DNA from: Gammaproteobacteria bacterium
Lineage (GTDB): Bacteria; Pseudomonadota; Gammaproteobacteria; JASBUN01
Length of the DNA stretch: 64,000 bases
Reading direction: 5' to 3'
NCBI GenBank assembly: GCA_030147845.1
Contig: JASBUN010000051.1
Location: forward strand, 33,146-97,145
The notes below the pieces were generated by a model, which was not told where the DNA came from, did no database searches, and saw only the letters and a program-made list of their open reading frames with translations. Position 1 is the stretch's first letter; each line of letters starts with the position of its first letter. Made by a program: the position numbers and the translations under genes. This document shows, piece by piece, positions 9,758 to 61,683 of the stretch.

Positions 9758-10369
9758 TTAGTTGTCGTTAATAAGCTGTTTGAGATCGTGCGTGTACGAC
9801 TTGGCCGGATCGGTGCCGCGACCGAGTAGACGTACATCGCCTTTGCGGTCGAACACGAACACCGCGCTGCTATGCGAGACTTCGTAGTTGCCGTGCGCGT
9901 CCGCCTTACCCAGCCCATAGGTCACGCGATAACGCTTGGTCAGATAGCGCAGTTCCTTTTGATCGCCGCGCAAGCCGATGAACTGTGGGCCGAATGCTTG
10001 CACATAACTTTTCAGTACCGCTGTGGTATCCCGCGCCGGGTCGACGCTGACGAACAAAATGCGCACTGCGTTGGCTTCGGCCCCTAATTTACGCAGCGCT
10101 TGCGCCAGTGTGGCCAATGTCGTTGGGCAGATGTCAGGACAGTTCGTGTAGCCAAAATACAGGACCGGAATTTTGCCGCGTAAATCGGACGCCTGCAGTG
10201 TTTTACCGTCTTGATCGGTCAGTGTAAATTTGAGCTGTGGCATGATGCCGGTGATATTGGTCAAATCCCACTTCTGCGGACTACTGCAACCACTCACTGC
10301 CGTCAGTAACACCAGTACTAGGCCGGCGATGCGTGCTACCCGAGGTGCTCTCGTCTTAGGATGTGTCAT
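9758..10369 (-). CDS. SCO1/SenC-family copper chaperone (thioredoxin fold, lipoprotein).
   Basis: Lipobox VSGC. CxxxC copper-binding motif YFGYTNCPDICPTT plus a conserved downstream His. Overlaps the upstream PCuAC gene stop. Confidence 0.85.
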   Translation of the reverse strand: MTHPKTRAPRVARIAGLVLVLLTAVSGCSSPQKWDLTNITGIMPQLKFTLTDQDGKTLQASDLRGKIPVLYFGYTNCPDICPTTLATLAQALRKLGAEANAVRILFVSVDPARDTTAVLKSYVQAFGPQFIGLRGDQKELRYLTKRYRVTYGLGKADAHGNYEVSHSSAVFVFDRKGDVRLLGRGTDPAKSYTHDLKQLINDN

Positions 10370-10848
10370 CACTGTGCCCCCACCGGCACGACCTTGAATT
10401 CGACCGTGAGTGCGCCGGAGTTTTTGAACTGCAGTTGAATCGGAACCGTATCGCCGACCGATAGTGATTGTTGGCGACCCATGAGCATGAGATGGTAGCT
10501 GCCTGGGCGAAAGTGCACCGATTTTCGCGGTTGTATGGTCAGCTTGGCCACCGGCGCCATTTTACTCATGCCGTCCGATTCGAAACTACGATGCATCATG
10601 ATTTGCTTGAATGAGCCGCTGATGGCGCCGGTTAATGTCACCGGCGCGGAGCCGTCATTGGTGAGCGTGAAGTAGCCAGCCAAAGGCAGGTTGCCCGGCA
10701 GCAGCCGCACCCGCGCCTGCGTGATGACTACGGAGGGTACCGGCGCAGCATTGGCGACAGCGCATGACAGCAGCAACGCCAACATCATACTACCGCGTCC
10801 GTGCGTACCGGAAATACTGACGTGCTTTTGCCAATGTATGCGCTGCAT
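10369..10848 (-). CDS. PCu(A)C periplasmic copper chaperone (DUF461).
   Basis: ATG at 10848 with GAGGAGA upstream. Signal peptide. Met/His-rich copper site (MMH...M...H.M), characteristic of PCuAC proteins that partner with SCO1. Confidence 0.8.
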   Translation of the reverse strand: MQRIHWQKHVSISGTHGRGSMMLALLLSCAVANAAPVPSVVITQARVRLLPGNLPLAGYFTLTNDGSAPVTLTGAISGSFKQIMMHRSFESDGMSKMAPVAKLTIQPRKSVHFRPGSYHLMLMGRQQSLSVGDTVPIQLQFKNSGALTVEFKVVPVGAQ

Positions 10849-11730: not shown

Positions 11731-11953
11731 CGGTGGTCCGAAACGGTGCGCGAGTCGCAACCGGCGTCAAGCAGCGCGCCGGGTGCTTTCCGGCGCAGAT
11801 GGTAGCAGAGCGTAGCGACCGCGTACACCCGGAGTCCGTCTCGCAACCCGCAAAAAAGCGTGCAAACGGCGTTCTTGAGTATGTATGCAGCCATGCTGGG
11901 TGCGCCGTTTCCGCGTCCGTGGCAGAATCTCCGCTCGACGCCGAAGGCGGTCC

Positions 11954-14900
11954 ATGAATGTGGTGCCCATGTCTAATCATTTTATCCATATAAAAGGTGC
12001 CAGGCAGAACAACCTCAAAGGCTTTGATTTACGGCTGCCGCTGCACGAGCTGATTGTCATCACCGGCGTCAGCGGTTCGGGGAAATCCTCGCTGGCTTTC
12101 GATACCGTATATGCGGAGGGACAGCGCCGCTACGTCGAGACCTTCTCGCCATATGCGCGTCAATTTCTCGATCGCATGGATAAGCCGAAAGTCGAGCGCG
12201 TCGACGGCATACCGCCGTCCATTGCGATTGATCAGACTAACCCGGTGCGTACCTCGCGCTCCACGGTCGGCACCATGACCGAGCTCAACGATCATCTGAA
12301 ATTGCTGTTTGCACGCGCCGCGCGATTGTATTGTCGCGACTGCGCGCAGCCGGTGACGCGCGACGATGCCAATAGTATTTTCGAACAGTTGCTTGGGCTT
12401 GCCGCAAACGCCGACGCCGCAATGGTGATGGTGACGTTTCCAATCACGGTACCGGAAAATTTTTCTGAACGAGAGGTGCGCGAGCTATTGGCGCGTCAGG
12501 GTTACGGGCGCGTACATCGCCGGCACGGAAGTCGACTGGATGTCGTACAGGATCGGGTGCGCGCTTCGGCAGCGCAGCGTGATCGCCTGGTCGAGGCGTT
12601 AGAAGCTGCGCTCAAATATGGCCAGGGCTACGTCAGTGTCTATCCCCTCGACGCCGATCGCAAAGCGGGGAAGCCGTGGCATTTTTCCGCTGCTCTACAC
12701 TGCGCCGAATGCGATATCGATTATGCCGAACCGACGCCGAATTTGTTTTCGTTCAACTCGCCGGTCGGCGCCTGCCCGACTTGCCGCGGATTCGGGCGCA
12801 CCATGGGCATCGATTACGACTTGGTCGTACCCGATGGTTCCAGGACTTTGGCCGGCGGCGCCATCAAGCCGTGGCAGACCGACAGCTATATCGAGTGTCA
12901 GCGTGATCTAACGCGCTTTGCGCGCCTACGTGGTGTTCCGCTCGAGGTGCCGTGGAACAAGCTCTCCAAAGCGCATCAACAATGGGTTTTGGAAGGCGAG
13001 GGCGAGTGGGACGATGGTAAATGGTACGGCGTGCGACGTTTCTTCGCTTGGCTTGAAACCAAAAGCTACAAAATGCACATTCGCGTGTTGCTGTCCAAGT
13101 ACCGCGCGTACGATGCCTGCCCTGATTGCGGCGGCGCGCGCTTGAAGACCGCTGCGCTGTTGTGGCGCGTTGGCGACGAGCACAATGCCGCGCGAGTTTT
13201 ACCCGTGGAACAGCGCTTTTCGCCGGCCGGTATCGGTTGTGCGAGCGCGCGCTTTCGCGCGCTTCCAGGGTTGACTCTGCATGATGTAATGCAACTTCCC
13301 ATCGAGCGCTGTCGCGAATTCTTTGAACATATCCATCTGCCGACACCCATGGACCAGGCGGCCGACGTATTACTCGGTGAAATTCGCGCACGACTTCGTT
13401 ATCTCGGCCAGGTAGGGCTGGACTATCTAAGTTTGGATCGGCAATCGCGTACGTTGAGCGGTGGCGAAGTGCAGCGCATCAATTTGACTACCGCGCTGGG
13501 AACTTCGCTGGTCAATACGCTGTTTGTGCTCGATGAGCCGAGCGTCGGCTTGCATCCGCGCGATATGCAGCGGGTGGTGAGCATATTGCATCAACTGCGC
13601 GATGCCGGAAATTCGCTGTTGGTGGTAGAGCACGACCCGCAAGTCATGTTGGCCGCCGACCGCGTGTTGGACTTGGGACCCGGGCCGGGCGAGCAAGGCG
13701 GTGAAGTGGTTTTTTTCGGCACGCCAAAACAGCTGCTGCGCTCTCGCCGATCGTTGACAGCCGATTACTTGGCAGGCCGCACGACGGTCGGCGGCGATGC
13801 TGGAAGGCGCGCTGAGCTACCGTCTTCGGCGCACGATTCAATACAAATTGTTGGGGCGGCTGAAAATAATCTCAAAGTCATCGACGTGTCGATTCCTTTG
13901 CATCAGTTGGTGTGCATTACCGGCGTTAGCGGTTCGGGCAAGTCGACCCTGATCCAGGACGTGTTGTATAAGGCGCTGCGCAAACTCAAGGGCCGGCCGG
14001 TGGAGCCCGCCGGCGCGCATCGCGCCATCCGCGGCCATGAGAGAATCGACGACGTAGTGCTGGTGGACCAGTCGCCAATAGGCAAAACGACGCGCTCCAA
14101 CCCGGCTAGCTACGTCGGTGCGCTCGACGCTATTCGCAAACTATTTGCCGCGCAACCGTTGGCGCGTGCGCGCGGCTATAGCGCCGGTACATTCAGCTTT
14201 AATTCCGGTACCGGGCGTTGTCCGACCTGCGGTGGGAACGGATTCGAACACGTTGAAATGCAGTTCTTGAGCGATGTCTATATTCGCTGCCCGGACTGCG
14301 ACGGCACGCGCTATCGTCCTGAAGTACTTGAGGTCAAACTACTGCCGTCCGCGGGCGGGATGGCGGCGCCGGTTTCGATTGCCGGCGTCCTAGAGATGAC
14401 TGTATCGGAGGCGGTGACGTGGTTCGCCGATCATGCCGAGATAATACGCGTTCTGGGACCGCTGCAGGCCGTAGGGCTGAGCTACCTGCGCTTGGGTCAG
14501 CCGGTGCCGACGCTGAGCGGTGGTGAGGCGCAACGGCTGAAGCTGGCGGGTCATCTCGCGCGCGCGCGCGGCGCCAAGTCCGACGGCACCACGTTGTTCA
14601 TTTTTGATGAGCCCACTACCGGCTTGCATTTCGACGATATTGCCCGTTTGTTGCGAGCCTTTGATGCATTGCTCGAACAGGGGCATTCGTTGGTGGTCAT
14701 CGAGCATAATCTGGACGTAATCGGGGCCGCCGATTGGATCGTTGATCTGGGGCCAGAGGGCGGCGATGCCGGCGGCAGCGTGGTATATGTTGGTACGCCC
14801 GCGGCGTTGACGCGCACTGGCGTTAGTCATACCGGCGTCGCGTTACGCCAATATCAGCGCGCACGCGGGCTTGCGGCATCGGCGGCTCAGGTGGTCGATG

Positions 14901-17575
14901 ACGGTAAGCCGGCATCGACATCGAGCACGCCCAGAGCCGGCACTGCAATCCGCATACGCAATGCTCGTGAGCATAATCTGCGCGGCATCGATGTTGATAT
15001 CCCACTGGACAAATTTACGGTTATTACCGGTGTCAGCGGCAGCGGCAAGAGTACGCTGGCGTTCGATATTCTGTTCGGTGAGGGGCAGCGGCGTTATCTG
15101 GAATCGCTCAACGCCTACGCGCGTCAGTTCGTACAGCCTTCGGCGCGTCCCGATGTCGACGCGATCACGGGAATACCGCCGACGGTGGCTATCGAGCAGC
15201 GTACCAGCCGCGGCGGCCGCAAGAGTACCGTGGCGACCTTGACCGAGATTTACCACTTTTTGCGGCTCCTGTTCGTCAAGCTCGGAACCCAATACTGTCC
15301 GGACTGCGATATACCGATCGAGGCACAGAGTGCGGAGACCATCCTAGCGCGCATCCTGCAGCAGTTTCGTGGCCGACAGGTCACGTTGTTTGCGCCTCTG
15401 GTGGTGGCGCGTAAGGGCTACTACACCGAGCTCGCGCAGTGGGCGGCCGGCAAAGGCTATGCGCAACTACGCGTCGATGGGGTGATGACGCCGACCGGGC
15501 AGTGGCCACGCCTGGAGCGTTTTCGTGAGCACAGTATCGATTTGCCGGTTGCCAGCATGGTGATATCGGCCAAGACCGAAGCGGAGTTGCGCGCTGTGCT
15601 CGCGCATGCCTTGGAGTTAGGTAAAGGCGTAGTTGAGGTACAGGCCTTGCAAAAGCGTCCGCGCGCCGCCGCTGCAAGCAACGCCGGTTGCGCCGTATTC
15701 TCGGTTCATCGCGCCTGCCCCGGTTGTGGACGCAGCTTCAAGGAGCTTGATCCGCGTCTGTTCTCATACAACTCCAAGCACGGTTGGTGCGAGCACTGCT
15801 ACGGCACCGGACTGCTGTTGACTGGATTCGATGCCGAGCAAAGCGGTGAGGAGATTCAATGGAACCAGTGGTGGGAAGGTGAAGCACGCACTTGTCCGAG
15901 CTGTGACGGTCATCGTCTGCGTGCCGAGGCATTGGCGGTGCGCGTTGACGGTCACTCCATCGGCGAGTATACGCGCTTGACGGTGCAACAGGCCGGAAGC
16001 GCGTTCGGTGCGTTGCGGCTACGCGGGCGCGCGGGTGAAATAGGGCGCGATATCATTCCTGAACTGCGTTCACGATTGTCCTTCTTGGTCGAAGTAGGGT
16101 TGGGGTATTTGTCGCTGGATCGTTCCGCGCCTACCTTGAGCGGTGGTGAGGCGCAGCGCATCCGTTTGGCCGCGCAACTGGGTTCCAATCTACGCGGCGT
16201 GTGTTACGTCCTTGATGAACCCACCATCGGTCTGCATCCGCGTGACAATCGCATGTTGCTGGCGACGCTCGGCAAACTAGCCGCTAAAGGCAACACCATT
16301 GTCGTTGTCGAGCACGACGAAGATACAATCCGCCGAGCCGAGCATGTCATCGACTTGGGACCCGGGGCCGGGGTCGATGGTGGTCGCCTGGTCGCTACCG
16401 GGACGCTCAAATCGATTATGGCGGCGCCGGATTCGGTAACCGGCCGGTTTTTGTCTATGCCGCTGGGTCATCCTCTGCAGCGGCAACGGCCAGTGGCCAC
16501 CAAGCAACCGGCCTTACGAATCGTCGGTGCTGATTTGCACAATTTACGGCGCCTAAGCGCACGCTTTCCGCTGCAACGATTGCTGTGCGTTACCGGGGTC
16601 AGTGGCAGCGGCAAGAGTACGCTGGTACGGCAGGTGTTGCGTGAAAATTTGCAGCGCTTATTGTCCCGCGGCAAACGTCGTAAGGCGGCGTCGGTACCGT
16701 TAGTCGGTTGCCGCGAATTACGTGGTTGGGAGATGATCGACCGCGTATTGGAGGTCGATCAGACGCCGATCGGCAAGACGCCGCGCTCGTGCCCGGCAAC
16801 CTATGTCGGTTTTTGGGACCAGGTGCGGCGTTTGTACGCCGACACCACTGAGGCGCGTATACGGGCTTTCGGTCCAAGCCGATTCTCGTTCAATGTCAAA
16901 GGCGGCCGTTGTCCGGCGTGCGACGGTCAAGGTGTAAAGCGCATTGAGATGAGTTTTCTTCCCGATGTGATCGTGCCTTGCGAGGTGTGTGCCGGCGCGC
17001 GTTTTACGCCGGACACCTTGTTGGTGAAGTACAAAGAGCGCTCCATCGCTGATGTCCTGGCAATGAGCGTAAATGAGGCGACCGATTTTTTTTCCGCGCA
17101 TGCCAAAATTCATCATGCCTTACAACTGCTGCAGGATGTCGGACTGGGCTACCTGCGCCTAGGTCAGCCAAGCCCGACCCTCAGTGGCGGCGAGGCACAG
17201 CGCATTAAACTGGTTACCGAATTGGCCAAGGCGCAACCGATACGCGGCGTCGGGCCGATTGGCAAGCATACCTTATATATATTGGACGAGCCGACCATCG
17301 GCTTGCATATGGCCGATGTCGAAAAGTTAGTGCGCGTTCTGCATCGCTTGGTGGATGCAGGCAATACCGTGCTGGTTATCGAGCATAATCTGGACGTCGT
17401 TGCCGAGGCCGATTGGTTAATCGACTTGGGACCTGAAGGCGGTGACGGCGGCGGCCGCATCGTCGTCCAGGGCGCGCCGCAATCGGTCGCACAGAAACGA
17501 CGCTCGGCGTCACATACGGCATCCGCGCTGGCTCAATTTCTGCGTCAACGCCGTTGCCCTAAAGGCGGTAAGTGA
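11954..17575 (+). CDS. Tandem-duplicated UvrA-like ABC ATPase (about 1870 aa). It consists of two complete UvrA units, giving four nucleotide-binding modules, and looks like a single-chain UvrA dimer.
   Basis: Unit 1 (aa ~30-980) contains ARQNNLKGF, Walker [15 protein letters not shown], Zn modules (CRDC...[18 protein letters not shown]), signature LSGGE twice, and Walker B/D-loops. Unit 2 (aa ~1000-1890) repeats the whole architecture ([48 protein letters not shown] twice, [14 protein letters not shown]). Both units retain a UvrB-binding-domain-like insert (QGYGRVH.../[10 protein letters not shown]...). Start is the ATG at 11954 (AAGGCGG upstream); alternative ATG at 11969. Confidence 0.85.
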
Positions 17576-52303: not shown

Positions 52304-52506
52304 GCGCCGCGAACCCGGCGCGCTTGGTGGACGGTGAGTTGGCGCTGCCGGGGCGCGTTTCATATCCACAAACAAAACGCGGATTGGGAATAGCGTGGAC
52401 CGGTCAAGCGTCTATTCTATTCTCAGTGTGGACGGCGTAGATTTGTCAGCTTTAGGCTCAGTAGGCCCCGATGTAAACCCATAACTAGATGAGGAGAACT
52501 AAACCC

Positions 52507-52953
52507 ATGTTTCGAGTCATGCATTCTTTTTTCCTGGCTACCGTGCTTTTGGGTATAACCGTTGCGTCGCCCGTGCGTGCGGACGAATCGCATCCGTTCG
52601 CCACGGCACACTATGTGCTACAGGTCAGCCAGGATGATCCGGCGCGTTGGAAGTTGGCCATGAACAACGCCGTCAACTTGCAGCAGCATTATGGTCCAGA
52701 CAAGGTCGACGTGGTTATCGTCGCTTATGGCCCCGGACTGAAAATGTTACTCAAGAACGCCAAGACCTCGAAGCGGGTCGAGAGTCTGTCGGCTGCCGGT
52801 ATCGAGTTCGATGCTTGCCACAACACCATGAAGGCAATGGCCAAGAAGCTTGGTCATATGCCCAAGCTTACGCCGGCGGCAAAGGTGGTGCCTGGCGGCG
52901 TGATCCGGATTGGTGAACTCGAACAGAAGGGCTATTCCTACATCAAGCCCTAA
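52507..52953 (+). CDS. Secreted DsrE/DsrF-like (YchN fold) family protein.
   Basis: ATG at 52507 with GAGGAG 9 nt upstream. Signal peptide ...SPVRA. DsrE-like core with a conserved Cys in a DACHNT-like context. Confidence 0.55.
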   Translation: MFRVMHSFFLATVLLGITVASPVRADESHPFATAHYVLQVSQDDPARWKLAMNNAVNLQQHYGPDKVDVVIVAYGPGLKMLLKNAKTSKRVESLSAAGIEFDACHNTMKAMAKKLGHMPKLTPAAKVVPGGVIRIGELEQKGYSYIKP

Positions 52954-53391
52954 CGCGGATGCGTTGCAGCGGTGGTCCCATGGCGCCCGGTCGTAGGTGT
53001 TGGCGCGCTCGTGGGACACCGCATTTTCGGGTAATTTCTACCACTCCGCGCCGCCTTCGCCTATCGCCAGCCGCGCGCCCGCGCCGGCTGTAATCGGCGC
53101 ACTTCGATTTCACCGGGCAATTGATGCTCTCCTAGTTACACAACGAACCGCATGCCGGCTTCGCCGCCGAGCGCACGCTGCGCCTGCGCCGGTATGCGCC
53201 CGACATGGCGGCACGCGACCGTTACCCCCATCCGCCACAGCGGTGGTACTGCCGAGCGTTTGCCGGTACCGTAGCCACATGATGAGCGAGGAGGCCGTGC
53301 GCGGTTATCATCCGCAAAACAATATTTTTTAAATATATTATTATGTACGCATATCGTTCAACCGAATGCGGCCACGGAATAGACGTTTCCC

Positions 53392-55737
53392 ATGCAAAGT
53401 CAGCAAACCCCAATTTTGAAGGACATTGTTTTGATCGGCGGCGGACACAGTCATGTCGCCGTGCTCAAACGCTTCGGTATGCGGCCGCTGCCGGGTGTAC
53501 GTCTGACGCTGATTTCTCGCGACATCCTCACACCGTACTCGGGCATGCTGCCGGGTTATATTGCGGGTCATTATGGATTCGATGACAGCCACGTGGATCT
53601 TCGTCCACTGGCCCAGTTCGCCGGCGCTCGCCTCATTCACGACGCAATGACCGGCCTCGATCTCGAACGGCGCTCGGTCATGTGTGAGAATCGTCCGCCG
53701 ATTGCTTACGACGTGCTTTCTATCGACATTGGTTCGACGCCGCGAACCATCGAGGCGCAAGGCGCGGCCGAGTACGCGCTTCCAGTCAAGCCGGTGGCCG
53801 GCTTCCTTGCCGGTTGGAAAGACATCGAACGCCGCGCGCGGGCGGCGGGTTCGGGATTTCGCATTGCCATCGTCGGTGCTGGTGCGGGCGGCGTCGAATT
53901 GACGCTGTCGCTGCAAAATCGACTCGCACAGCACGGTAGTGCGGATAATGGCTCGTTGGCGCGCTTCGTATTGGTAACCAGTTCCGCTGAAATCCTACCG
54001 ACCCACAATGCTCGCGTACGTAAAAAATTTACCCGTATCCTTCGGCAGCGGCAGGTCGACGTTTACACCGGCCACTCGGTGGTGGCGGTCGAGCCCCATC
54101 AGTTGCGCTGCGCCAATGGCGAGCAGGTTGCTTGTGACGCAGTGATATGGGTGACGCAGGCGTCGGCACTCGAATGGCTGTCGCGTAGCGGCTTGGACGT
54201 CAATGAGGATGGTTTCATACTGGTTAACGATTTTCTCCAGTCGTCGTCACATGCTGACGTGTTCGCCGCCGGCGATGTCGCCACCATGATCAATCACCCG
54301 CGCCCCAAATCCGGCGTCATGGCGGTACGTCAGGGTCCGCCGTTGGCCGAAAATTTGCGTCGCGCCGTGGTTGGTCGGCGGTTGAAGCGCCTGCGCCCAC
54401 AACGTCACTTTTTGAGTTTGATCAGCACCGGCGACCGCTATGCGGTGGCGTCGCGCACCGGACTTGCGGTCGAAGGCGCCTGGGTGTGGCGCTGGAAGGA
54501 CCATATCGACCGCAAATGGATGGCCAAGTATCGCGAGTTGCCCGAAATGGGTGTGGCCCGCGGTCCCGCTATCGATCAACGCCTGGGCGATGGCGAGACG
54601 CTGACGGCAATCTCAGCGCTGGCCATGCGTTGCGGCGGTTGTGGCTCCAAGGTCGGCAGCACGCTTCTCAGTCGCGTACTGCACCAAGTGCATCCGGTCG
54701 AGCGCGATGACGTGCTGGTGGGGCTGAAGGATCCGGATGATGCCGCCGTGGTTGAAGTGCCGCCCGGAAAGGTGATCATTCATACCGTTGATTTTTTCCG
54801 TTCCTTTATTGACGACGCTTATATCTTCGGTCGCATCGCCGCCAATCATGCCTTGAGCGATATCTACGCCATGGGCGCCGAGCCGCAGAGCGCGTTGGCG
54901 CTTGCGACTTTACCGTTTGGTCTCGAGCGCAAAATGGAGCAGACCTTGTTCGAAGTCATCAGCGGCGCCATGGAAGCCTTGTCCGAGTCCGGCGCGGCCT
55001 TGGTCGGTGGTCATACCAATGAAGGCCAGGAGCTGGTGTTCGGTCTATCGGTCAACGGTTTGGCCGACCGTAACGACATGCTGCGCAAAGTCGGCATGCG
55101 ACCGGGCGACGTATTGGTGTTGACCAAGGCGGTGGGTACCGGCACTATTTTCGCAGCCGATATGCGCGCCAAGGCCAAGGGGCGATGGGTAGAGGCGGCT
55201 TTGCAAAGTATGTTGCAGTCGAACAAGGCAGCGGCCGAGTGCGTGCACCGCTACGGCGCGCGCGCTTGCACAGACGTTACCGGTTTTGGGCTGCTGGGTC
55301 ATCTGGTCGAAATGACCAAGCCATCGGCGGTGGATGCCGAGTTGTTCTTGGAGTCGTTGCCGATATTGGATGGCGCGACCGAAACCATTGCGCAAGGCAT
55401 ATTCAGTTCCCTGCAACCGGAGAACATTCGTTTGCGGCGCGCCATCGCTAATCTTTCCGAGGCAGCCGATCACGCCCTATACCCATTACTGTTTGATCCG
55501 CAGACCGCCGGTGGACTGCTGGCGTGTATCCCAGCCGCGAACGTGTCGGCTTGCATCGACGAGTTGCACGCGCTTGGCTATACGCAGGCGGGCGTGATTG
55601 GTATCGTTCGCGCCATGGGCGCCGGGCTTGAGCCGATTACGCTGCGGTTGCGACCGGCGCCAACGGAATTTGAGGAGCAGGATGACTTGGCGCCGCTTGG
55701 CAACAATCGACCTGCCAAGGCGCGCGCTAAGTCTTGA
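53392..55737 (+). CDS. selD: Bifunctional FAD-dependent pyridine-nucleotide-disulfide oxidoreductase (NADH-dehydrogenase-like) fused to selenide, water dikinase SelD (Cys-type). Candidate SenC of a selenoneine locus.
   Basis: N-terminal ~390 aa carry Rossmann motifs (VLIGGGHSH, IAIVGAGAGG, FAAGDVA). The SelD domain starts ~aa 400 with LAMRCGGCGSKVG (the catalytic Cys of a non-Sec SelD) and has the PurM-like fold (VGG HTNEG..., GFGLLGHL). Confidence 0.85.
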   Translation: MQSQQTPILKDIVLIGGGHSHVAVLKRFGMRPLPGVRLTLISRDILTPYSGMLPGYIAGHYGFDDSHVDLRPLAQFAGARLIHDAMTGLDLERRSVMCENRPPIAYDVLSIDIGSTPRTIEAQGAAEYALPVKPVAGFLAGWKDIERRARAAGSGFRIAIVGAGAGGVELTLSLQNRLAQHGSADNGSLARFVLVTSSAEILPTHNARVRKKFTRILRQRQVDVYTGHSVVAVEPHQLRCANGEQVACDAVIWVTQASALEWLSRSGLDVNEDGFILVNDFLQSSSHADVFAAGDVATMINHPRPKSGVMAVRQGPPLAENLRRAVVGRRLKRLRPQRHFLSLISTGDRYAVASRTGLAVEGAWVWRWKDHIDRKWMAKYRELPEMGVARGPAIDQRLGDGETLTAISALAMRCGGCGSKVGSTLLSRVLHQVHPVERDDVLVGLKDPDDAAVVEVPPGKVIIHTVDFFRSFIDDAYIFGRIAANHALSDIYAMGAEPQSALALATLPFGLERKMEQTLFEVISGAMEALSESGAALVGGHTNEGQELVFGLSVNGLADRNDMLRKVGMRPGDVLVLTKAVGTGTIFAADMRAKAKGRWVEAALQSMLQSNKAAAECVHRYGARACTDVTGFGLLGHLVEMTKPSAVDAELFLESLPILDGATETIAQGIFSSLQPENIRLRRAIANLSEAADHALYPLLFDPQTAGGLLACIPAANVSACIDELHALGYTQAGVIGIVRAMGAGLEPITLRLRPAPTEFEEQDDLAPLGNNRPAKARAKS

Positions 55738-56686
55738 TTAGTTCATCGACGACACCAAGCACGGCGCCGGCTTCGCTCGCAGGCGTGAATCGGGGTGCTT
55801 TATCGGCGCATTGTTGCTGTAGGCGGGTGTAGAACGCAGCATCCTGTTCGGCGCGCCGTAGTAGTTCAGCCAAGGCGCGTTCGTCCTCGAGCGCGTAATA
55901 GCCGGCATAGTCCTCGCCCAGCAGTCCCACCGAGCCGTCTATGCGTGATGCGATGACCGGCAACCCCGCCACCACCGCTTCTGAGATTACATTGGCGCCG
56001 CCCTCCATGCGTGATGACAGTACCATCAGATGACAACGCCCCATCAATCGGCGCACCTGCCAATGCGGAATCTCGCCGAGCCACTGATAACGTGGATTAT
56101 CGGCGACTTCCGCCCGCACGGCTTTGGACCAGTCTTGGTCGTGGGCTTTGCCGGCGTGCAAGACGCGGATGCGCGAACTGTCCGGAAGATGGCGCGCAGC
56201 GAGCGCCGTACGCAGCGGATCTTTTTCTTCACGCAAATGACCGACCACGCAGACATCGAAACCGTGTCCGCGCCGCAGGTAACTGCTAGGCAGCGGCGCT
56301 GCGGACTGGTGGATGACCCGTACTTTGCTCCGAAACTGTGTCGGTAACGCCTCATGCGCCTTGTCATGTAATACCATTAATCGTTGTGCGCGCTCGATCG
56401 AGCCCAAAGTGACGGCGGCATCTGTGTGCATGAAACGGTAAAGATCGGTGCCGGTGAGTGCTACAATCAACGGGCGTTGCGGGTAACGTTCGTGAAATGC
56501 GCGTATGGCCGCTGCGCTACGCCAAGCGTGCAAGGCAATCATGGCGTCGGCATTGCCGCCATCGTAATCGGTGGCAATTGCGACGCGATGGCCGCCTTGG
56601 CGCAGGAAACGCGCCCAACGTACCGCCGTGGCGCGATTGCCGGCGCGAGCGCTCGGCCGCGCCGGTGTGATTAACGCAATACGCAT
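55727..56686 (-). CDS. GT-B fold glycosyltransferase, candidate selenosugar synthase SenB.
   Basis: N-terminus MRIALITPA. C-terminal GT1/GT4-type EX7E-like region (...GGANVISEAVVAGLPVIAS...). Sandwiched between the selD fusion and the EgtB-family gene. ATG at 56686; the stop overlaps the selD 3' end by 11 nt. Confidence 0.65.
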   Translation of the reverse strand: MRIALITPARPSARAGNRATAVRWARFLRQGGHRVAIATDYDGGNADAMIALHAWRSAAAIRAFHERYPQRPLIVALTGTDLYRFMHTDAAVTLGSIERAQRLMVLHDKAHEALPTQFRSKVRVIHQSAAPLPSSYLRRGHGFDVCVVGHLREEKDPLRTALAARHLPDSSRIRVLHAGKAHDQDWSKAVRAEVADNPRYQWLGEIPHWQVRRLMGRCHLMVLSSRMEGGANVISEAVVAGLPVIASRIDGSVGLLGEDYAGYYALEDERALAELLRRAEQDAAFYTRLQQQCADKAPRFTPASEAGAVLGVVDELIKT

Positions 56687-56703
56687 GTTTGAAATTTCAT
56701 TTC

Positions 56704-57993
56704 ATGGCCATTGATCGACAAATTTTACTCGACAATCTAAATGACGCGCGACTGCGTACTTTGGAACTCGTTCGCGGCCTCGATGCCGAGCAGCTGATGG
56801 GGCCGAAGTTGCCGACGGTGAATCCGTTACTGTGGGAAATCGGCCATTTGGCTTGGTTTCACGAGCACTGGATATTACGTCGCCTCGATGGGCGGTCGCC
56901 GCTACTGGCAAATGCGGATGCGCTCTACGACTCGACCCATGTCGCCCACGATACGCGCTGGAGCCTTGCGCTGCCGACGCTCGACGGCACGTTGGCCTAT
57001 ATGAACGCGGTGCATCAATCGCTCATCGATCGGCTCGATCATGAGCCGAGCGCGGACGAACAGTATTTTTACCAGCTTACCGCCTTCCACGAAGATATGC
57101 ACACCGAAGCATTTATCTACACGCGCCAGGCGCTGGCTTACCCGGCGCCATCATTCGCGGCTAGTCATGCCGATGCCGAAGCCGCAGGTGCGCTGCACGG
57201 CGATGTTGCGATCGCCGGCGGTGAACTGCAACTCGGTGCGGACAAGGCGCAGGAGTTTGTATTTGACAACGAAAAGTGGGCGCATCCGGTTGTTGTGGCG
57301 CCGTTTCACATGGCCAGAGCGGCGCTGACCAATGCTGAATACGCCGCCTTTGTCGAGGCAGGCGGCTACCGGCAGCAAGCTTTATGGACTAGTGACGGTT
57401 GGGCTTGGCGCGAAAAAGCGGGTTTGCAGTGTCCAGTATATTGGCGCTCGACGGCTGATGGTTGGCAGGTGCGGTATTTCGACGGCTGGCGAACGTTGGC
57501 GCCGCACCAACCGGTGATACACGTCAGTTGGTACGAGGCCGATGCCTATTGCCGTTGGGCAGGGCGGCGTTTGCCGACGGAGGCGGAGTGGGAGCTTGCG
57601 GCCGCGACAGAGCCGCACGGAGACGGTATTGCGGGAAACAAACGACGTTATCCGTGGGATAACGCACCGCCGACCGCGCGGCATGCCAATCTCGACGGTC
57701 GTCAGCTCGGTTGTGTCGATGTCGCTGCTTGTGCCGACGGCGACAGCGCCTATGGCTGCCGGCAAATGCTCGGCAACGTATGGGAGTGGACCGCCAGCGA
57801 CTTTCAGCCCTTTCCAGGCTTTTCGCCCGACCCGTATCGCGAGTATTCCGAACCCTGGTTCGGCACTCGCAAGGTGCTTCGCGGCGGTTCTTGGGCGACG
57901 CGTTCAAGAATGCTTTGGAATACGTGGCGTAACTTCTTCCCGCCCGATCGCAACGATATTTTTGCCGGTTTTCGTACCTGCGCATTGACCTGA
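56704..57993 (+). CDS. EgtB-family (DinB_2 plus FGE-sulfatase domains) C-S/C-Se bond-forming enzyme, candidate selenoneine synthase SenA.
   Basis: N-terminus aligns with EgtB (LLDNLNDARLRTLELV...LLWEIGHLAWFHEHW). Iron ligands HEDMH are present. C-terminal FGE-sulfatase-like fold (GNVWEWT...RGGSWAT). ATG at 56704, only 17 bp from the divergent SenB-like start. Confidence 0.8.
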   Translation: MAIDRQILLDNLNDARLRTLELVRGLDAEQLMGPKLPTVNPLLWEIGHLAWFHEHWILRRLDGRSPLLANADALYDSTHVAHDTRWSLALPTLDGTLAYMNAVHQSLIDRLDHEPSADEQYFYQLTAFHEDMHTEAFIYTRQALAYPAPSFAASHADAEAAGALHGDVAIAGGELQLGADKAQEFVFDNEKWAHPVVVAPFHMARAALTNAEYAAFVEAGGYRQQALWTSDGWAWREKAGLQCPVYWRSTADGWQVRYFDGWRTLAPHQPVIHVSWYEADAYCRWAGRRLPTEAEWELAAATEPHGDGIAGNKRRYPWDNAPPTARHANLDGRQLGCVDVAACADGDSAYGCRQMLGNVWEWTASDFQPFPGFSPDPYREYSEPWFGTRKVLRGGSWATRSRMLWNTWRNFFPPDRNDIFAGFRTCALT

Positions 57994-58028: not shown

Positions 58029-58766
58029 TTAAAGTATTTTCCATAGCCCCATGACGCTCACTACCATCAGGCCGGCACCGATCCAGCGGGTAAACACGCT
58101 ATGGTTTTTGAGTATGTAGTCGTGCGTCTTCAGTCCCAGGAAGTGGCCGATGGCGGCGACCGGCAGCAGAATCAAGGCGGCCGCCATATGCAGCGGCACG
58201 TCGAATACAATAAATGTCGCCATCTTGATGGTGACCAAAATGAACCAAAGCACGAACAGCGTATTGCGCAGTTGCGGCAGCGCCACGTTACGCATGAACA
58301 CGGCAATCATGACCGGCGCGCCACTGAGCGAGGTTCCGGTAATGTAGCCGCCGAGCACCAACAGCAGTTTGTCGACCCAGGCGCGGTGGCTGTGGATGGT
58401 CCAGTTCATCAGCCAGAGCACCGAGTAAAACAACGTCACTGAGTAGATGAACAACAGTAGCCACAGCGTCGGCAGTTTGATCAGGCCGAGCACGCCGACT
58501 ACGGCCGCCGGGACGACGTACGGCGAGCTACGGCGGAGAAATCCCCAGTCGACGTTGTGCAGGCGTGTGCGCAGCGTCAGTGTTGAGAAAAATAAAAGAT
58601 GGAGACCGATAATCGGCAGCCATAGCAGCGGTTCATCATTGATCAGGAGTAACAACGGCAAGCCCAAGGCAGCGCCGCCAAAGCCCAAGCCGCTGCGTAT
58701 AAAGCCGCTCCATACGAACAGCAGGGCAACGAGGCCGATTTGAAACGTGCTTAGGTCGTGCAACAT
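58029..58766 (-). CDS. TauE/SafE (TSUP, DUF81) family anion/sulfite-type exporter.
   Basis: Eight predicted transmembrane segments. Two TSUP repeats with the G-rich motifs SGLGFGGAAL and GGYITGTSLSGAPV. ATG at 58766; the track ORF starts at TTG 58823. Confidence 0.8.
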   Translation of the reverse strand: MLHDLSTFQIGLVALLFVWSGFIRSGLGFGGAALGLPLLLLINDEPLLWLPIIGLHLLFFSTLTLRTRLHNVDWGFLRRSSPYVVPAAVVGVLGLIKLPTLWLLLFIYSVTLFYSVLWLMNWTIHSHRAWVDKLLLVLGGYITGTSLSGAPVMIAVFMRNVALPQLRNTLFVLWFILVTIKMATFIVFDVPLHMAAALILLPVAAIGHFLGLKTHDYILKNHSVFTRWIGAGLMVVSVMGLWKIL

Positions 58767-59063
58767 GACATCAAGTAACGGTCGGTGATGTTGTAGTGCC
58801 ACAAGATGGAGCACAGTGCGCAAAAATGGAGCACATATTTATCCGCTGTGGTTGCACACGCGCGCCCCCCGAGTTGCCGCCAAGTCGAAGCGCGAATCGT
58901 ATCGGCTTGGGTGCGCTCAAGCATCTGTTTTTACGGATTTACCGTGACCTGCGAATGTAGAGCGTAGGAATGTTCGGGCAAACGCATCTTGCATTTTCAT
59001 AGCGAACAGCTTACATACGTAACTGAGATATATGAGATAACAAATCAGCGGGGGAATCCTATC

Positions 59064-60065
59064 ATGAATGTAACGCACCTTACACGGCGCACGCTGTTTA
59101 CACTTACGGGCGGCGTGTGCCTGTCTTTGCTGTTGAGCTTAACGCCTTACGCGAATGCTGGAGAAGTGATCAATTACGGTGTTCAGCCGGCGACCCAGCC
59201 GATTTATATCGCCAAGGCTCTCGGTCTTCTGAAACCGATCGAGAAACAATTCAAGGTCAAGATCGTACTGCGAAATTTCTCCTACGGTGCGCCCGAAAAT
59301 CAGGCCATGGCCGCCGGTGAATTGCAGATCGCCTCGGCGGGAATGGGGCCGGCAGTAGTCGCCTCCGCCCGGTTGCCGGCTAAGTTGTTGGCCATATCGA
59401 TCTTGGAACAGACCGCGCTCATGGTGCCTAAGGATTCGCCGATACATTCGGTGAAAGAACTGAAAGGCAAGACGATTGCGTTTCCCGGTGTTGGCTCGCA
59501 GCAATATCCGCTCTTGCTCAAGGCGCTCGCCGATGCCGGGCTGAAGGAAAGCGACGTCAAGCTGTTCAAGACCAAGGGCTCTGAAATAGGTCCGCTGCTT
59601 AAAAGTCATTCGGTCGACGCGGGTATCACGTGGGATCCACACGTATCCTACGCGTTGGCAAACGGCTGGGCGCGCGTGTTATTGAAAGCCGAAAAGATTT
59701 TGCCGATTTTGCAAGGCCACTATATCGGCAATGGTGAGTATGCCCGCATTGATTTTATCGAGAAGCATCCGAAGCTGGTGCAGGCATTGATGGACGCCAA
59801 CGTCAAGGCTATCGACTTCATTATCAAGCACCCGAAAAAAGCGGCGGCGATGTGGGCCAAGGAAGTCGGCATTCCAGAAAAGGTCGCTCTCTACTCGTTA
59901 AAGGAAAACATATCGGTGTATAGCTTGGACGTTGTGCCGCGCGCATCGGCCATGGATGCCTACACCGGGTTTTTGAAAAAGGCCGGTATTTTGCGTCCTA
60001 CCGACAACCCGAAGATCGCACCTTCATTTGCGGAAAAGGCGCTCGATGAGCTCAAAGCCAAGTAG
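59064..60065 (+). CDS. ABC transporter periplasmic substrate-binding protein, NMT1/SsuA/TauA (NitT/TauT) family.
   Basis: ATG at 59064. Signal peptide ...PYANAGE. SsuA/THI5-like fold. Confidence 0.8.
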   Translation: MNVTHLTRRTLFTLTGGVCLSLLLSLTPYANAGEVINYGVQPATQPIYIAKALGLLKPIEKQFKVKIVLRNFSYGAPENQAMAAGELQIASAGMGPAVVASARLPAKLLAISILEQTALMVPKDSPIHSVKELKGKTIAFPGVGSQQYPLLLKALADAGLKESDVKLFKTKGSEIGPLLKSHSVDAGITWDPHVSYALANGWARVLLKAEKILPILQGHYIGNGEYARIDFIEKHPKLVQALMDANVKAIDFIIKHPKKAAAMWAKEVGIPEKVALYSLKENISVYSLDVVPRASAMDAYTGFLKKAGILRPTDNPKIAPSFAEKALDELKAK

Positions 60066-60882
60066 TAGTACGCCGCCGCCGTCGGTCGCGATGGGTCGCC
60101 GTGCGGCCGGCGTCTCCGGCGCCGTGCTGCGCGGGGGTGGCAAGCGGCTGCTGCCGTTCGTCTATGCCGCCGTGACCATTGCGGTAATTTGGGAGCTGGT
60201 GGTTGTGATCACCAAGCCGGACGCGGCCATACTGCCGTCGCCGTGGCAGTCGGCGCAGACGTTCGCGCATTTGGTGGCCAACGGTGAGCTTGCGCGCGAT
60301 GTTTATGCCAGTCTGCGGCGGGTACTGTCGGCTTGGGCGGGTGCTGCGGTTATTGGTATTCCCTTGGGTTTGGTCATGGGGTATTCGCATCGATTCGAGA
60401 AGATCGCCGATCCGTTCATCGAACTGTTGCGTCCGATCTCGCCGTTGGCGTGGATCCCGCTGGCGATTTTGTGGTTTGGTATCGGCGAGATCGGCAAGGT
60501 GTTCGTGGTATTTATCGGCACGTTCTTCCCGATCGTGCTGACCACGGTAGCCGGCGTCAAGAGTATCGACCCGACCTTAATCAACGCCGGTCGTGTATAC
60601 GGCTGCACAAGTGGCATTTCGCTATTCCGTAAAGTAATCCTGCCGGCATCGCTACCCAGCATTGTGGTGGGACTGCGCATTTCCTTCGGTATGGGGTGGG
60701 CCGCTATCATCGCGGCCGAATTGGTCGCTGCACAATCCGGTTTGGGCTTTCTGATCGCCAACGGGATGGAAATACTACGCGCCGACGAAGTGCTGGTGGG
60801 CATGGTGGTGATTGGCGTGCTTGGCGTCATGTTTGATTCGGTTTTTCGCTACGCACACCGGCGTCTCGTCTGGACGGAGTAA
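60046..60882 (+). CDS. ABC transporter permease (SsuC/TauC-like).
   Basis: Six transmembrane segments. EAA-like loop (...LLRPISPLAWIPLAILWFG...). The start overlaps the substrate-binding protein gene 3' end. Confidence 0.8.
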   Translation: MSSKPSSSTPPPSVAMGRRAAGVSGAVLRGGGKRLLPFVYAAVTIAVIWELVVVITKPDAAILPSPWQSAQTFAHLVANGELARDVYASLRRVLSAWAGAAVIGIPLGLVMGYSHRFEKIADPFIELLRPISPLAWIPLAILWFGIGEIGKVFVVFIGTFFPIVLTTVAGVKSIDPTLINAGRVYGCTSGISLFRKVILPASLPSIVVGLRISFGMGWAAIIAAELVAAQSGLGFLIANGMEILRADEVLVGMVVIGVLGVMFDSVFRYAHRRLVWTE

Positions 60883-60885
60883 ATA

Positions 60886-61683
60886 ATGCTGGAATCCATT
60901 GGTAAGGCCCTGCGTATTCGCGGGCTGTCGAAAACATATTTTACGCGTTCGGGCGAAGCAGTGGAGGCGTTGTGTCCGGTGAATATGGATATTCGCGCCG
61001 GCGAATTCGTTGCCGTCGTCGGCCCATCGGGCTGCGGCAAGAGCACCTTGTTGCAGATTTTGGCCGGTATCACCGAGCCGAGCGCAGGCGAAGCCTACGC
61101 CGACGATACACGTATTCATGGCCCGAGCATCGACCGCAGTATGGTGTTCCAGAACTACGCCTTGTTTCCGTGGCTGTCTGTGCGCCGTAATGTCGAGTTT
61201 GGCCTGGAGCATAAGGGCGTACCGAAAGCCGAGCGCCGTGAAATTGCCGAGCGCTATCTGAAAATGGTCGGCTTATCGGCATTCGCTGACAAGCAGACCA
61301 ATGAGCTATCGGGTGGCATGAAACAGCGCGTCGCCATTGCGCGGGCGTTCGCCGTCGATCCGTCGGTCATTCTCATGGACGAGCCGTTTGGTGCCCTGGA
61401 CGCACTGAGCCGGCGCTTACTGCAACGCGAGCTGCTGCGCATCTGGCAGGAGCATCGCAAGACCGTGCTGTTCATTACCCACTCGGTGGTCGAAGCGATT
61501 TACCTGGCCGATCGTATTGTCGTCATGACCGCGCGCCCAGGACGTATTCGTTCCGAGATCGAAGTCGACCTGGAACATCCACGTGACAACACCTCGCCGC
61601 AGTTTGCCGAGTTGGAGCGTGATATTTATGCGCAATTGGATGAGGAATTGACGCGCAGTTTCGGTTTGGATCAGGACGCTTGA
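60886..61683 (+). CDS. ABC transporter ATP-binding protein (SsuB/TauB-like).
   Basis: Walker A GPSGCGKST. Signature LSGGMKQR. Walker B ILMDEPFGALD. H-loop. GGAG upstream of the ATG at 60886. Confidence 0.85.
   Translation: MLESIGKALRIRGLSKTYFTRSGEAVEALCPVNMDIRAGEFVAVVGPSGCGKSTLLQILAGITEPSAGEAYADDTRIHGPSIDRSMVFQNYALFPWLSVRRNVEFGLEHKGVPKAERREIAERYLKMVGLSAFADKQTNELSGGMKQRVAIARAFAVDPSVILMDEPFGALDALSRRLLQRELLRIWQEHRKTVLFITHSVVEAIYLADRIVVMTARPGRIRSEIEVDLEHPRDNTSPQFAELERDIYAQLDEELTRSFGLDQDA

Follow-up and report, generated by a model that had tools for sequence, protein, structure and literature searches.

A flavoprotein oxidoreductase-SelD fusion assigned as SenC of a selenoneine gene cluster

Why should a selenophosphate synthetase (SelD) be covalently joined to a flavoprotein reductase, and what does such a protein do in a selenoneine (sen) gene cluster? 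The question is raised by a gene in a 64,000-nucleotide stretch of DNA from a Gammaproteobacteria bacterium (assembly GCA_030147845.1, contig JASBUN010000051.1, positions 33,146 to 97,145), called the window throughout. The gene encodes a protein of 781 residues, in which a pyridine-nucleotide oxidoreductase domain precedes a SelD domain. A preliminary description of the locus proposed that the reductase delivers reduced selenium to SelD and that, in a sen context, this would be an unusual architecture for SenC. We are close to certain that the protein is the SenC of a selenoneine senA-senB-senC cluster, and that it represents a common fused form of SenC. What the reductase does is a matter of graded probability, weighed below. 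The features concerned, in window coordinates, are as follows.

53392..55737, forward strand: senC, oxidoreductase-SelD fusion of 781 residues, stop codon included (open reading frame call, Pfam, NCBIfam)
53419..54534, forward strand: N-terminal oxidoreductase domain predicted to bind FAD and NAD(P)H, resembling type II NADH dehydrogenases (NDH-2), residues 10-381 (TIGR03169, Pfam, fold, conservation)
54535..54624, forward strand: interdomain linker, residues 382-411, variable and of lower confidence at 382-400, then a short helix at 401-411 (profile of the predicted local distance difference test, pLDDT; conservation)
54625..54663, forward strand: glycine-rich catalytic loop of SelD, residues 412-424 (alignment, conservation; pLDDT below 50 at 417-422)
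54664..55647, forward strand: SelD core with AIRS/PurM-like N and C domains, residues 425-752, followed by a disordered tail to residue 781 (Pfam, NCBIfam, fold)
55727..56686, reverse strand: senB, selenosugar synthase (TIGR04348, 430 bits, cutoff 300; 8e-59 to Variovorax paradoxus SenB crystal sequences)
56689..57993, forward strand: senA, selenoneine synthase (NF041186, 526 bits, cutoff 420; motif Y386 / N415-F-F)

The open reading frame (ORF) at 53392..55737 starts with ATG and runs for 781 codons with zero internal stops. Pfam places Pyr_redox_2 at residues 10-315 (3.9e-28) and Pyr_redox at 157-236, followed by AIRS at 449-557 (1.6e-20) and AIRS_C at 570-741 (1.1e-14). A curated NCBIfam model, TIGR03169 ('Nterm_to_SelD'), exists specifically for the SelD-fused reductase domain. 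It matches residues 11-380 over its full length (model positions 1-365/365; 508.6 bits, cutoff 310). Residues 412-714 score 307.3 bits with TIGR00476, the equivalog model for selD (cutoff 125). The boundaries drawn by these hidden Markov models bear out the preliminary description, which had both modules in one polypeptide. We also built an AlphaFold2 model from 48 fused sequences. Both halves are confident and form one continuous chain (mean pLDDT 88, predicted template modelling score 0.88). The layout is reductase at residues 10-381, linker at 382-400, helix at 401-411, flexible Gly/Cys loop at 412-424 and SelD core at 425-752. Using Foldseek, with the halves matched separately, the template modelling (TM) scores were 0.83-0.85 to NDH-2 and 0.76-0.83 to SelD; no solved structure spanning both halves was among the matches.

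Two neighbouring genes merged by a sequencing or assembly frameshift would give the same appearance. However, the identical 781-residue protein (P0001) is present in both NCBI and Logan, and the same gene order surrounds it on two Logan assemblies from different sequencing runs. The best 120 homologues are all 718-792 residues long with identical domain order, and hundreds of homologues share this architecture. The full-length homologues listed are 59-76% identical to the window protein. There is no frameshift or stop between the domains, and the linker and flanking domains are modelled as a continuous chain. We conclude that the fusion is real, and give an artefact negligible probability.

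The sen context, also supposed in the preliminary description, proved genuine. Both senB and senA lie directly downstream and exceed the cutoffs of their models. The senC and senB genes are convergent, with 3' ends overlapping by 11 bp (55727-55737). The senB and senA genes are head-to-head, with start codons 2-17 bp apart (56686-56704); gene callers put the senA start at 56704. Hence, the promoter of each must lie within the coding region of the other. The SenA enzyme scores higher with OvsA crystal sequences (330 and 321 bits) than with V. paradoxus SenA (264 bits). We nevertheless reject an ovoselenol (ovs) reading of the cluster. The composite-motif test of Kayrouz et al. 2024 (PMC11030361) separates SenA, which acts on hercynine, from OvsA, and the three discriminating residues here are Y/NF, as in SenA, not M/QA, as in OvsA. 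An engineered OvsA-YNF variant outscores wild-type OvsA against the window SenA, and no OvsM-like gene was found in the window. Hence, the Y/NFF motif, together with the adjoining SenB and SenA, identifies the cluster as sen and the fusion protein as its SenC. Searches of the window for egtD, selA, selB, selU and yedE/F found none of them; nor were there a tRNA-Sec, other tRNAs or Rfam matches, and promoter and terminator matches were at chance level. The remainder of the window holds housekeeping genes.

How common is a fused SenC? We scanned one genome per species, using a 31-sequence SenB alignment, and recovered at least 579 SenB loci. The best 80 were kept. Note that these carry the SenB proteins closest to that of the window (49-63% identity) and are not a random sample. 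The state of SelD at each locus was determined by ORF-level BLAST with the window's domains in an 8 kb flank. SelD was fused at 55 of the 58 loci with a readable SenB-adjacent SelD (95%); two of the 55 are cut by a contig end, with the reductase C-terminus still within the same ORF. Three of the 80 loci have an unfused SelD, one has the reductase alone, five are uninformative because of contig ends and 16, Acidobacteriota among them, have no SelD within 8 kb of SenB. Gammaproteobacterial hosts of the fused form include Thioalkalivibrio, Methylococcaceae, Chromatiales, Amphritea, Marinobacter and Halomonas. Beyond these are Alphaproteobacteria (Rhodospirillales, Xanthobacteraceae and Hyphomicrobiales) and one Burkholderiaceae metagenome-assembled genome (MAG). 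The commonest gene order is that of the window: senA, divergent senB, convergent senC. At seven loci a gene is inserted between senA and the fused selD; the sole one scanned, in L022, is egtD (TIGR03438, 405 bits). We conclude that, in the branch sampled, which is rich in Gammaproteobacteria and Alphaproteobacteria, the fused form is the norm for SenC.

The three unfused SelDs, about 35% identical, are all from Rhodospirillales MAGs and encoded on the minus strand (L050:5488-6480, L064:3270-4262 and L071:5469-6461). Their stop-to-stop ORFs begin 'GCKV' straight after a TGA. They appear to be selenocysteine-type enzymes (...G-U-G-C-K), and their sen clusters would then need selenocysteine machinery. 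The lone reductase, in an Alphaproteobacteria MAG (L045:8954-10177, minus strand), is a 408-residue ORF that scores 487 bits with TIGR03169, ends exactly at the usual linker position and abuts SenB. No SelD was found within 8 kb. Here the fusion seems to have been split naturally, the sen cluster keeping the reductase rather than SelD.

Because the first 80 loci are close to the window, we ran a second scan, of metagenomes, with the V. paradoxus SenB sequence from a Protein Data Bank alignment. SelD stands alone at all 13 readable loci of the V. paradoxus-like clade. It was again fused at three loci, recovered in the same scan, whose SenB resembles that of the window. Like the window protein, V. 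paradoxus SenC (Kayrouz et al. 2022) is a SelD homologue adjoining senB and senA, and the same reaction is expected of both. However, the V. paradoxus type is stand-alone, of about 350 residues, and co-directional after senB, with the loop SHGGGCGCK and an 'ATNA' motif. The window SenC is fused and convergent with senB, with the loop CGGCGSK and 'ANHA'; its SelD half is 33-38% identical to the stand-alone SelDs. We conclude that the clusters are of two types, each with its own SelD lineage. The fused type, though common, is uncharacterised; biochemical work has been done on the unfused type. Hence, the architecture called unusual in the preliminary description is so only beside the V. paradoxus SenC clade.

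The fused SelD is also found next to SenB in L074 (a Halomonas MAG), L026 (Oleiphilaceae) and L055 (Marinobacter sp. B9-2). In L026 and L074, it is accompanied by an enzyme with the OvsA motif (M/QAY) and an OvsM-like methyltransferase (TIGR04345, 298 bits). L055 has SenB and fused SelD, although no SenA- or OvsA-like gene lies within the flank; this arrangement agrees with how Kayrouz et al. 2024 (PMC11030361) described the ovs genes of Marinobacter. The ovs clusters of Halomonas and Marinobacter thus share the senB/fused-senC cassette of the window. They differ, in L026 and L074, by having OvsA and an OvsM-like gene where the window has SenA with the Y/NFF motif and no OvsM-like gene. By this gene content, the fused SelD serves ovoselenol clusters too. 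As a separate observation, the OvsA-motif enzyme of L026 reaches 432 bits with the SenA model of NCBIfam, above the cutoff of 420. Hence, this model fails to separate OvsA from SenA.

The fusion itself is not new. Zhang et al. 2008 (PMC2432076) described it and proposed that the reductase supplies the substrate of SelD. Mariotti et al. 2015 (PMC4561486) found the NADH dehydrogenase-like fusion to be 'by far the most common' fusion of SelD. In their survey fusions were always N-terminal, on Cys-type SelD, scattered over bacteria and passed to protists, selenoprotein-making protists included. The window protein has the same two domains, in the same order, with a Cys-type SelD. However, sen had not been discovered when these papers appeared, and they associated the fusion with selenocysteine and selenouridine traits. 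Here, and at the 55 related loci, the fusion provides a selenoneine or ovoselenol cluster with its SelD. Our literature search, of incomplete coverage, found no report that connects the fused form with sen clusters. Hence, both the fusion and the idea of reductase supply were already published. The proposal of delivery to SelD in the preliminary description is plausible and not original.

The fusion also extends well outside sen clusters. The reductase family comprises 2,447 clusters (50% identity) at E ≤1e-30. Among the best 150 representatives, 110 have a SelD half and 32 are stand-alone proteins of at most 430 residues. The reductase is always N-terminal to SelD, next to the catalytic loop. 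Most fused representatives are merely 40-50% identical to any sen-linked fusion; the most distant include proteins of the cyanobacterium Geitlerinema and the alga Vaucheria. Around four cyanobacterial fusions (Geitlerinema, Chroogloeocystis, Nostoc and Lyngbya), no SenA-, SenB-, selA- or selU-like neighbours were found within 8 kb; such genes may lie elsewhere in the genome. These fusions without sen neighbours, and those in selenoprotein-making protists, tie the role of the reductase to SelD itself, not to a selenoneine-specific step. Two of the distant fusions, P0294 (Geitlerinema sp. PCC 9228) and P0359 (Vaucheria litorea), are without the Cys loop and pass TIGR00476 by a narrow margin (140-147 bits, cutoff 125). 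We considered them as members of TIGR04369, a model for oxidoreductase/SelD-related fusions ('fusion_not_SelD'), and rejected this, the scores being 350 and 332 bits against a cutoff of 700. The Cys-less fusions are a degenerate subgroup, poorly fitted by every curated model.

In the window protein, the SelD half retains the catalytic apparatus. Its loop reads M-R-C414-G-G-C417-G-S-K420, marking a Cys-type SelD. C417 and K420 align with Cys17 and Lys20 of Escherichia coli SelD (3u0o, which matches this half at 4.5e-49) and are invariant in 171-172 of 172 fusions. The SelD motifs DDAAV, TVDFF and SD are kept. In fused SelDs, C414 is an extra, invariant cysteine that forms a CxxC with C417. Of 120 near homologues, 119 have the loop C-x-G-C-G-[A/S]-K, as do 111 of 119 fusions of the cyanobacterial type; unfused sen-linked SelDs carry GCGCK or GUGCK in its place. 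A further mark lies in A-A-N485-H486-A-L-S-D (54838-54843 for N485-H486). E. coli, Aquifex aeolicus and V. paradoxus-type SelDs hold a canonical Asn, in AA(T/A)NA(I/L)SD, where the window protein has His486, and 'NH' is invariant in the fused family. Judged by the CxxC loop and His486, the fused SelDs appear as a distinct lineage. With the E. coli and A. aeolicus enzymes (3u0o and 2yye), the SelD half shares the PurM-like fold, the mobile Gly-rich loop, the catalytic Cys/Sec and Lys, and the Asp motifs. It differs in identity (about 32%), in having CxxC rather than CxC, with the extra Cys three residues upstream, in its His for Asn, and in the 410-residue N-terminal extension that those enzymes lack.

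The reductase half is likewise intact. The motifs for FAD (GGGHSH, 16-21) and NAD(P)H (GAGAGG, 162-167), and FAAGD (291-295), are at least 95% conserved in the 172 fusions, where the NAD(P)H motif takes the form G(A/G)GAGG. Their presence leaves standing the claim of an FAD/NAD-binding module. The family signature PYSGMLPG..AGHY (residues 48-61, with PYSGMLPG at 48-55) is also conserved, and a further motif, GVMAVR, spans 308-313. In the AlphaFold2 model a single Trp/Lys-rich amphipathic helix (363-381) closes the domain before the linker. The nearest solved relatives by sequence are NDH-2 enzymes (YjlD, 3e-21; C. thermarum, 8e-18); FSP1 and sulfide:quinone oxidoreductase (SQR) are far weaker. 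By fold, SQR comes next after NDH-2 (Foldseek TM about 0.75). The two dinucleotide-binding domains and overall fold of NDH-2 are thus shared, at about 20-24% identity. However, the first glycine motif of NDH-2 is GxGxxG, and here is GGGHSH. NDH-2 also has a C-terminal membrane domain with two amphipathic helices, where the reductase half has one, after which the chain runs into SelD. NDH-2 enzymes further bear a quinone-site motif, AQxAxQ, with known variants AQxAxR and APxAxQ (PMC5299459). This position aligns to G308-V-M-A-V-R313, and neither variant is present. G308, V309, A311, V312 and R313 are invariant in 48 fusions, giving GVxAVR. With an invariant GVxAVR standing where AQxAxQ would be, a quinone is an improbable acceptor.

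The preliminary description had called this half a disulfide oxidoreductase. A pyridine-nucleotide flavoprotein it is; the disulfide part of the label does not hold. The only cysteines of the domain are C98 (91% conserved), C240 (43%) and C248 (6%), so none is invariant among the 172 fusions. The redox-active CxxxxC of glutathione, thioredoxin and lipoamide reductases was not found in the domain across these proteins, and NCBIfam models for those three enzymes score below 30 bits on the 781-residue protein. With the SQR model NF049943 (SQR_III) it scores 45.5 bits, against a cutoff of 525. Hence, with no invariant Cys and no CxxxxC, the domain is neither a disulfide reductase of the glutathione/thioredoxin type nor an SQR. 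We dropped an attempt to call NADH or NADPH preference from the residue after the second Rossmann strand. This is Ser197 here and Asp/Glu in 126 of 172 fusions, at a position where the alignment is uncertain.

What, then, would the fused enzyme do? We suggest that the Cys-type SelD half makes selenophosphate from ATP and reduced selenium, an activity predicted by homology. Selenophosphate would be used by the selenosugar synthase SenB, and SenA would use the resulting selenosugar to selenylate hercynine. The soluble, NDH-2-like flavoprotein half would, with NAD(P)H and FAD, reduce selenium that is oxidised or bound to thiols. Candidate substrates are Se(0) and selenite-derived species such as a selenotrisulfide or perselenide. 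Reduced selenium might then pass directly to the mobile glycine-rich loop of SelD, about 30 residues past the end of the reductase, such that toxic, oxygen-labile selenide is never released. Taken whole, this account, of a SenC with an attached flavoprotein that reduces selenium and hands it to SelD, is one we consider probable, if by no great measure. Its most specific part, comprising the substrate of the reductase and the handover to the loop, follows from the logic of the fusion and from conservation, and we put it slightly short of an even chance. Functional coupling argues for the account, since the fusion is kept at 55 of 58 sen loci and 110 of 150 reductase representatives have a SelD half. 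The invariant CxxC pair in the loop of fused SelDs suggests how a handover might run. The pathway also leaves a gap for a reductase: reconstitution with V. paradoxus SenC needed added Na2Se and anaerobic conditions, whereas cells were fed selenite.

Several points weigh against this account. The literature search noted above found no experimental test of the reductase domain and no activity assay of a fused-type SelD. The domain lacks the invariant Cys or CxxxxC that supply the thiols used by selenotrisulfide-reducing glutathione and thioredoxin reductases. About one fifth of family representatives (32/150) are stand-alone, and some fusions have a Cys-less SelD half. Hence, the reductase domain can work without an active SelD. 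Nor is a dedicated reductase indispensable, as the pathway of the V. paradoxus type runs with a SelD that is unfused. Finally, His486 stands where other SelDs have Asn. A bolder version of the account we think unlikely. In this, fused SenC would be a self-sufficient enzyme, converting oxidised selenium to selenophosphate. Selenium would be caught as a selenotrisulfide or perselenide on Cys414-x-x-Cys417, the loop would swing into the former quinone pocket for reduction by NAD(P)H via FAD, and would then return to the kinase site, with no selenide set free at any point.

The strongest competitor has the reductase acting after SelD, to keep intermediates reduced, such as selenosugar diselenide, the selenenic acid that selenoxide elimination leaves, or selenoneine diselenide, with fusion merely ensuring co-expression. 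There are grounds for this: a step of the sen pathway calls for 'reduction or disproportionation', dithiothreitol is required in vitro, the SenB product was isolated as a diselenide, and L045 keeps a stand-alone reductase beside SenB with no SelD within 8 kb. However, around three true cyanobacterial fusions the flanking 8 kb contain no sen genes, protists that make selenoproteins carry the fusion too, and in our sample the domain is never fused to SenA or SenB. The extra Cys, moreover, sits in the selenium-binding loop of SelD. We thus rate a downstream role as improbable. Less probable still is a quinone-linked function of the NDH-2 or SQR type, whereby the N-terminal domain would tether the protein to the membrane as an NADH:quinone reductase, or act as a safety valve oxidising selenide to Se(0). 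The kinship to NDH-2 and then SQR fits such a role. So do an SQR entry crystallised with sodium selenide (3sz0) and the amphipathic helix (364-380), which resembles the membrane helix of NDH-2. Set against these are the invariant GVxAVR in place of AQxAxQ and its two variants, the missing catalytic cysteines of SQR with a score far below the SQR_III cutoff, and one C-terminal helix before the linker rather than a two-helix domain.

The C-terminal half might alternatively be related to SelD without making selenophosphate, in which case the sen cluster would depend on another SelD in the genome. TIGR04369 does align end-to-end (483.2 bits), His486 replaces the canonical Asn, and Cys-less degenerate fusions exist. 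Yet this score is below the cutoff of 700, whereas TIGR00476 is exceeded more than twofold. The degenerate fusions reach less than half as many bits with TIGR00476, and the catalytic Cys and Lys are invariant. In addition, the fused protein is the only SelD adjoining SenB at 55 loci. We consider this reading very improbable. Hence, our preference stays with a selenophosphate-making SenC whose attached flavoprotein supplies reduced selenium.

Since 2008 the fusion has been a bioinformatic clue to how reduced selenium is delivered to selenophosphate synthetase without release of toxic, O2-sensitive selenide. The window adds no new kind of protein, being home to an ordinary member of a known, curated family. 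However, the form of SenC that prevails in nature, and that ovoselenol clusters use as well, is uncharacterised, and all biochemistry concerns the unfused V. paradoxus type. Mutagenesis sites in engineered SenC reach only to about residue 316, which fits a stand-alone, SelD-sized enzyme. Through its CxxC loop and altered quinone pocket, the reductase hypothesis is open to specific mutants and assays. If selenoneine production were engineered around the fused enzyme, selenide might no longer have to be supplied. Were the self-sufficient enzyme to exist, it would be a new way for a Cys-less flavoprotein to reduce a chalcogen bound to a partner domain, and would explain how aerobic bacteria feed selenoneine and ovoselenol synthesis.

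Some further observations concern the related clusters. Nine SenA-like enzymes (L023, L024, L027, L028, L030, L040, L048, L076 and L106) carry a Y/TYY motif. This has Thr for the Asn of SenA and differs from all six composite motifs so far published (SenA, OvsA, EgtB-I/II/IV and OvoA). They are mostly at loci with egtD between senA and the fused selD, in Methylococcaceae, Amphritea and other Gammaproteobacteria, and could form a separate subclass of selenoxide synthase. The MAG L003 (JAIVTC010000119.1), which bears the label Candidatus Bathyarchaeota archaeon, has a complete, proteobacteria-like sen cluster with fused SelD and a SenB 61% identical to that of the window. It is probably a binning contaminant; horizontal transfer is less likely.

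Other genes flank the window cluster. Upstream of senC, on the forward strand, are a weak DsrE-like gene (52489-52953) and an ORF of 111 residues (52997-53332) skipped by gene finders. Downstream of senA are a TauE/SafE-family membrane protein (58029-58823, reverse strand) and an SsuA/TauC-like ABC transporter (58989-61683, forward strand), the permease of which matches SaoP at 188 bits (cutoff 295). All four had seemed candidates for a part in selenium relay or transport. We rejected them as conserved partners, since they recur in 0 of 109 SenB-anchored loci. An NMT1-type ABC transporter resembling that of the window follows the fused SelD in the cyanobacterial locus L113 (10957-13711). Elsewhere in the window, a reverse-strand gene (9758-10372), beside a Caa3_CtaG assembly factor, encodes a copper chaperone of the Pfam family 'SCO1/SenC'. 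It is unrelated to selenoneine SenC, and the likeness in name could mislead keyword-based annotation. Finally, positions 11885-17575 (forward strand) encode a protein of 1,896 residues, about twice the size of a normal UvrA, in which several ABC ATPase modules accompany the DNA-binding and interaction domains of UvrA.

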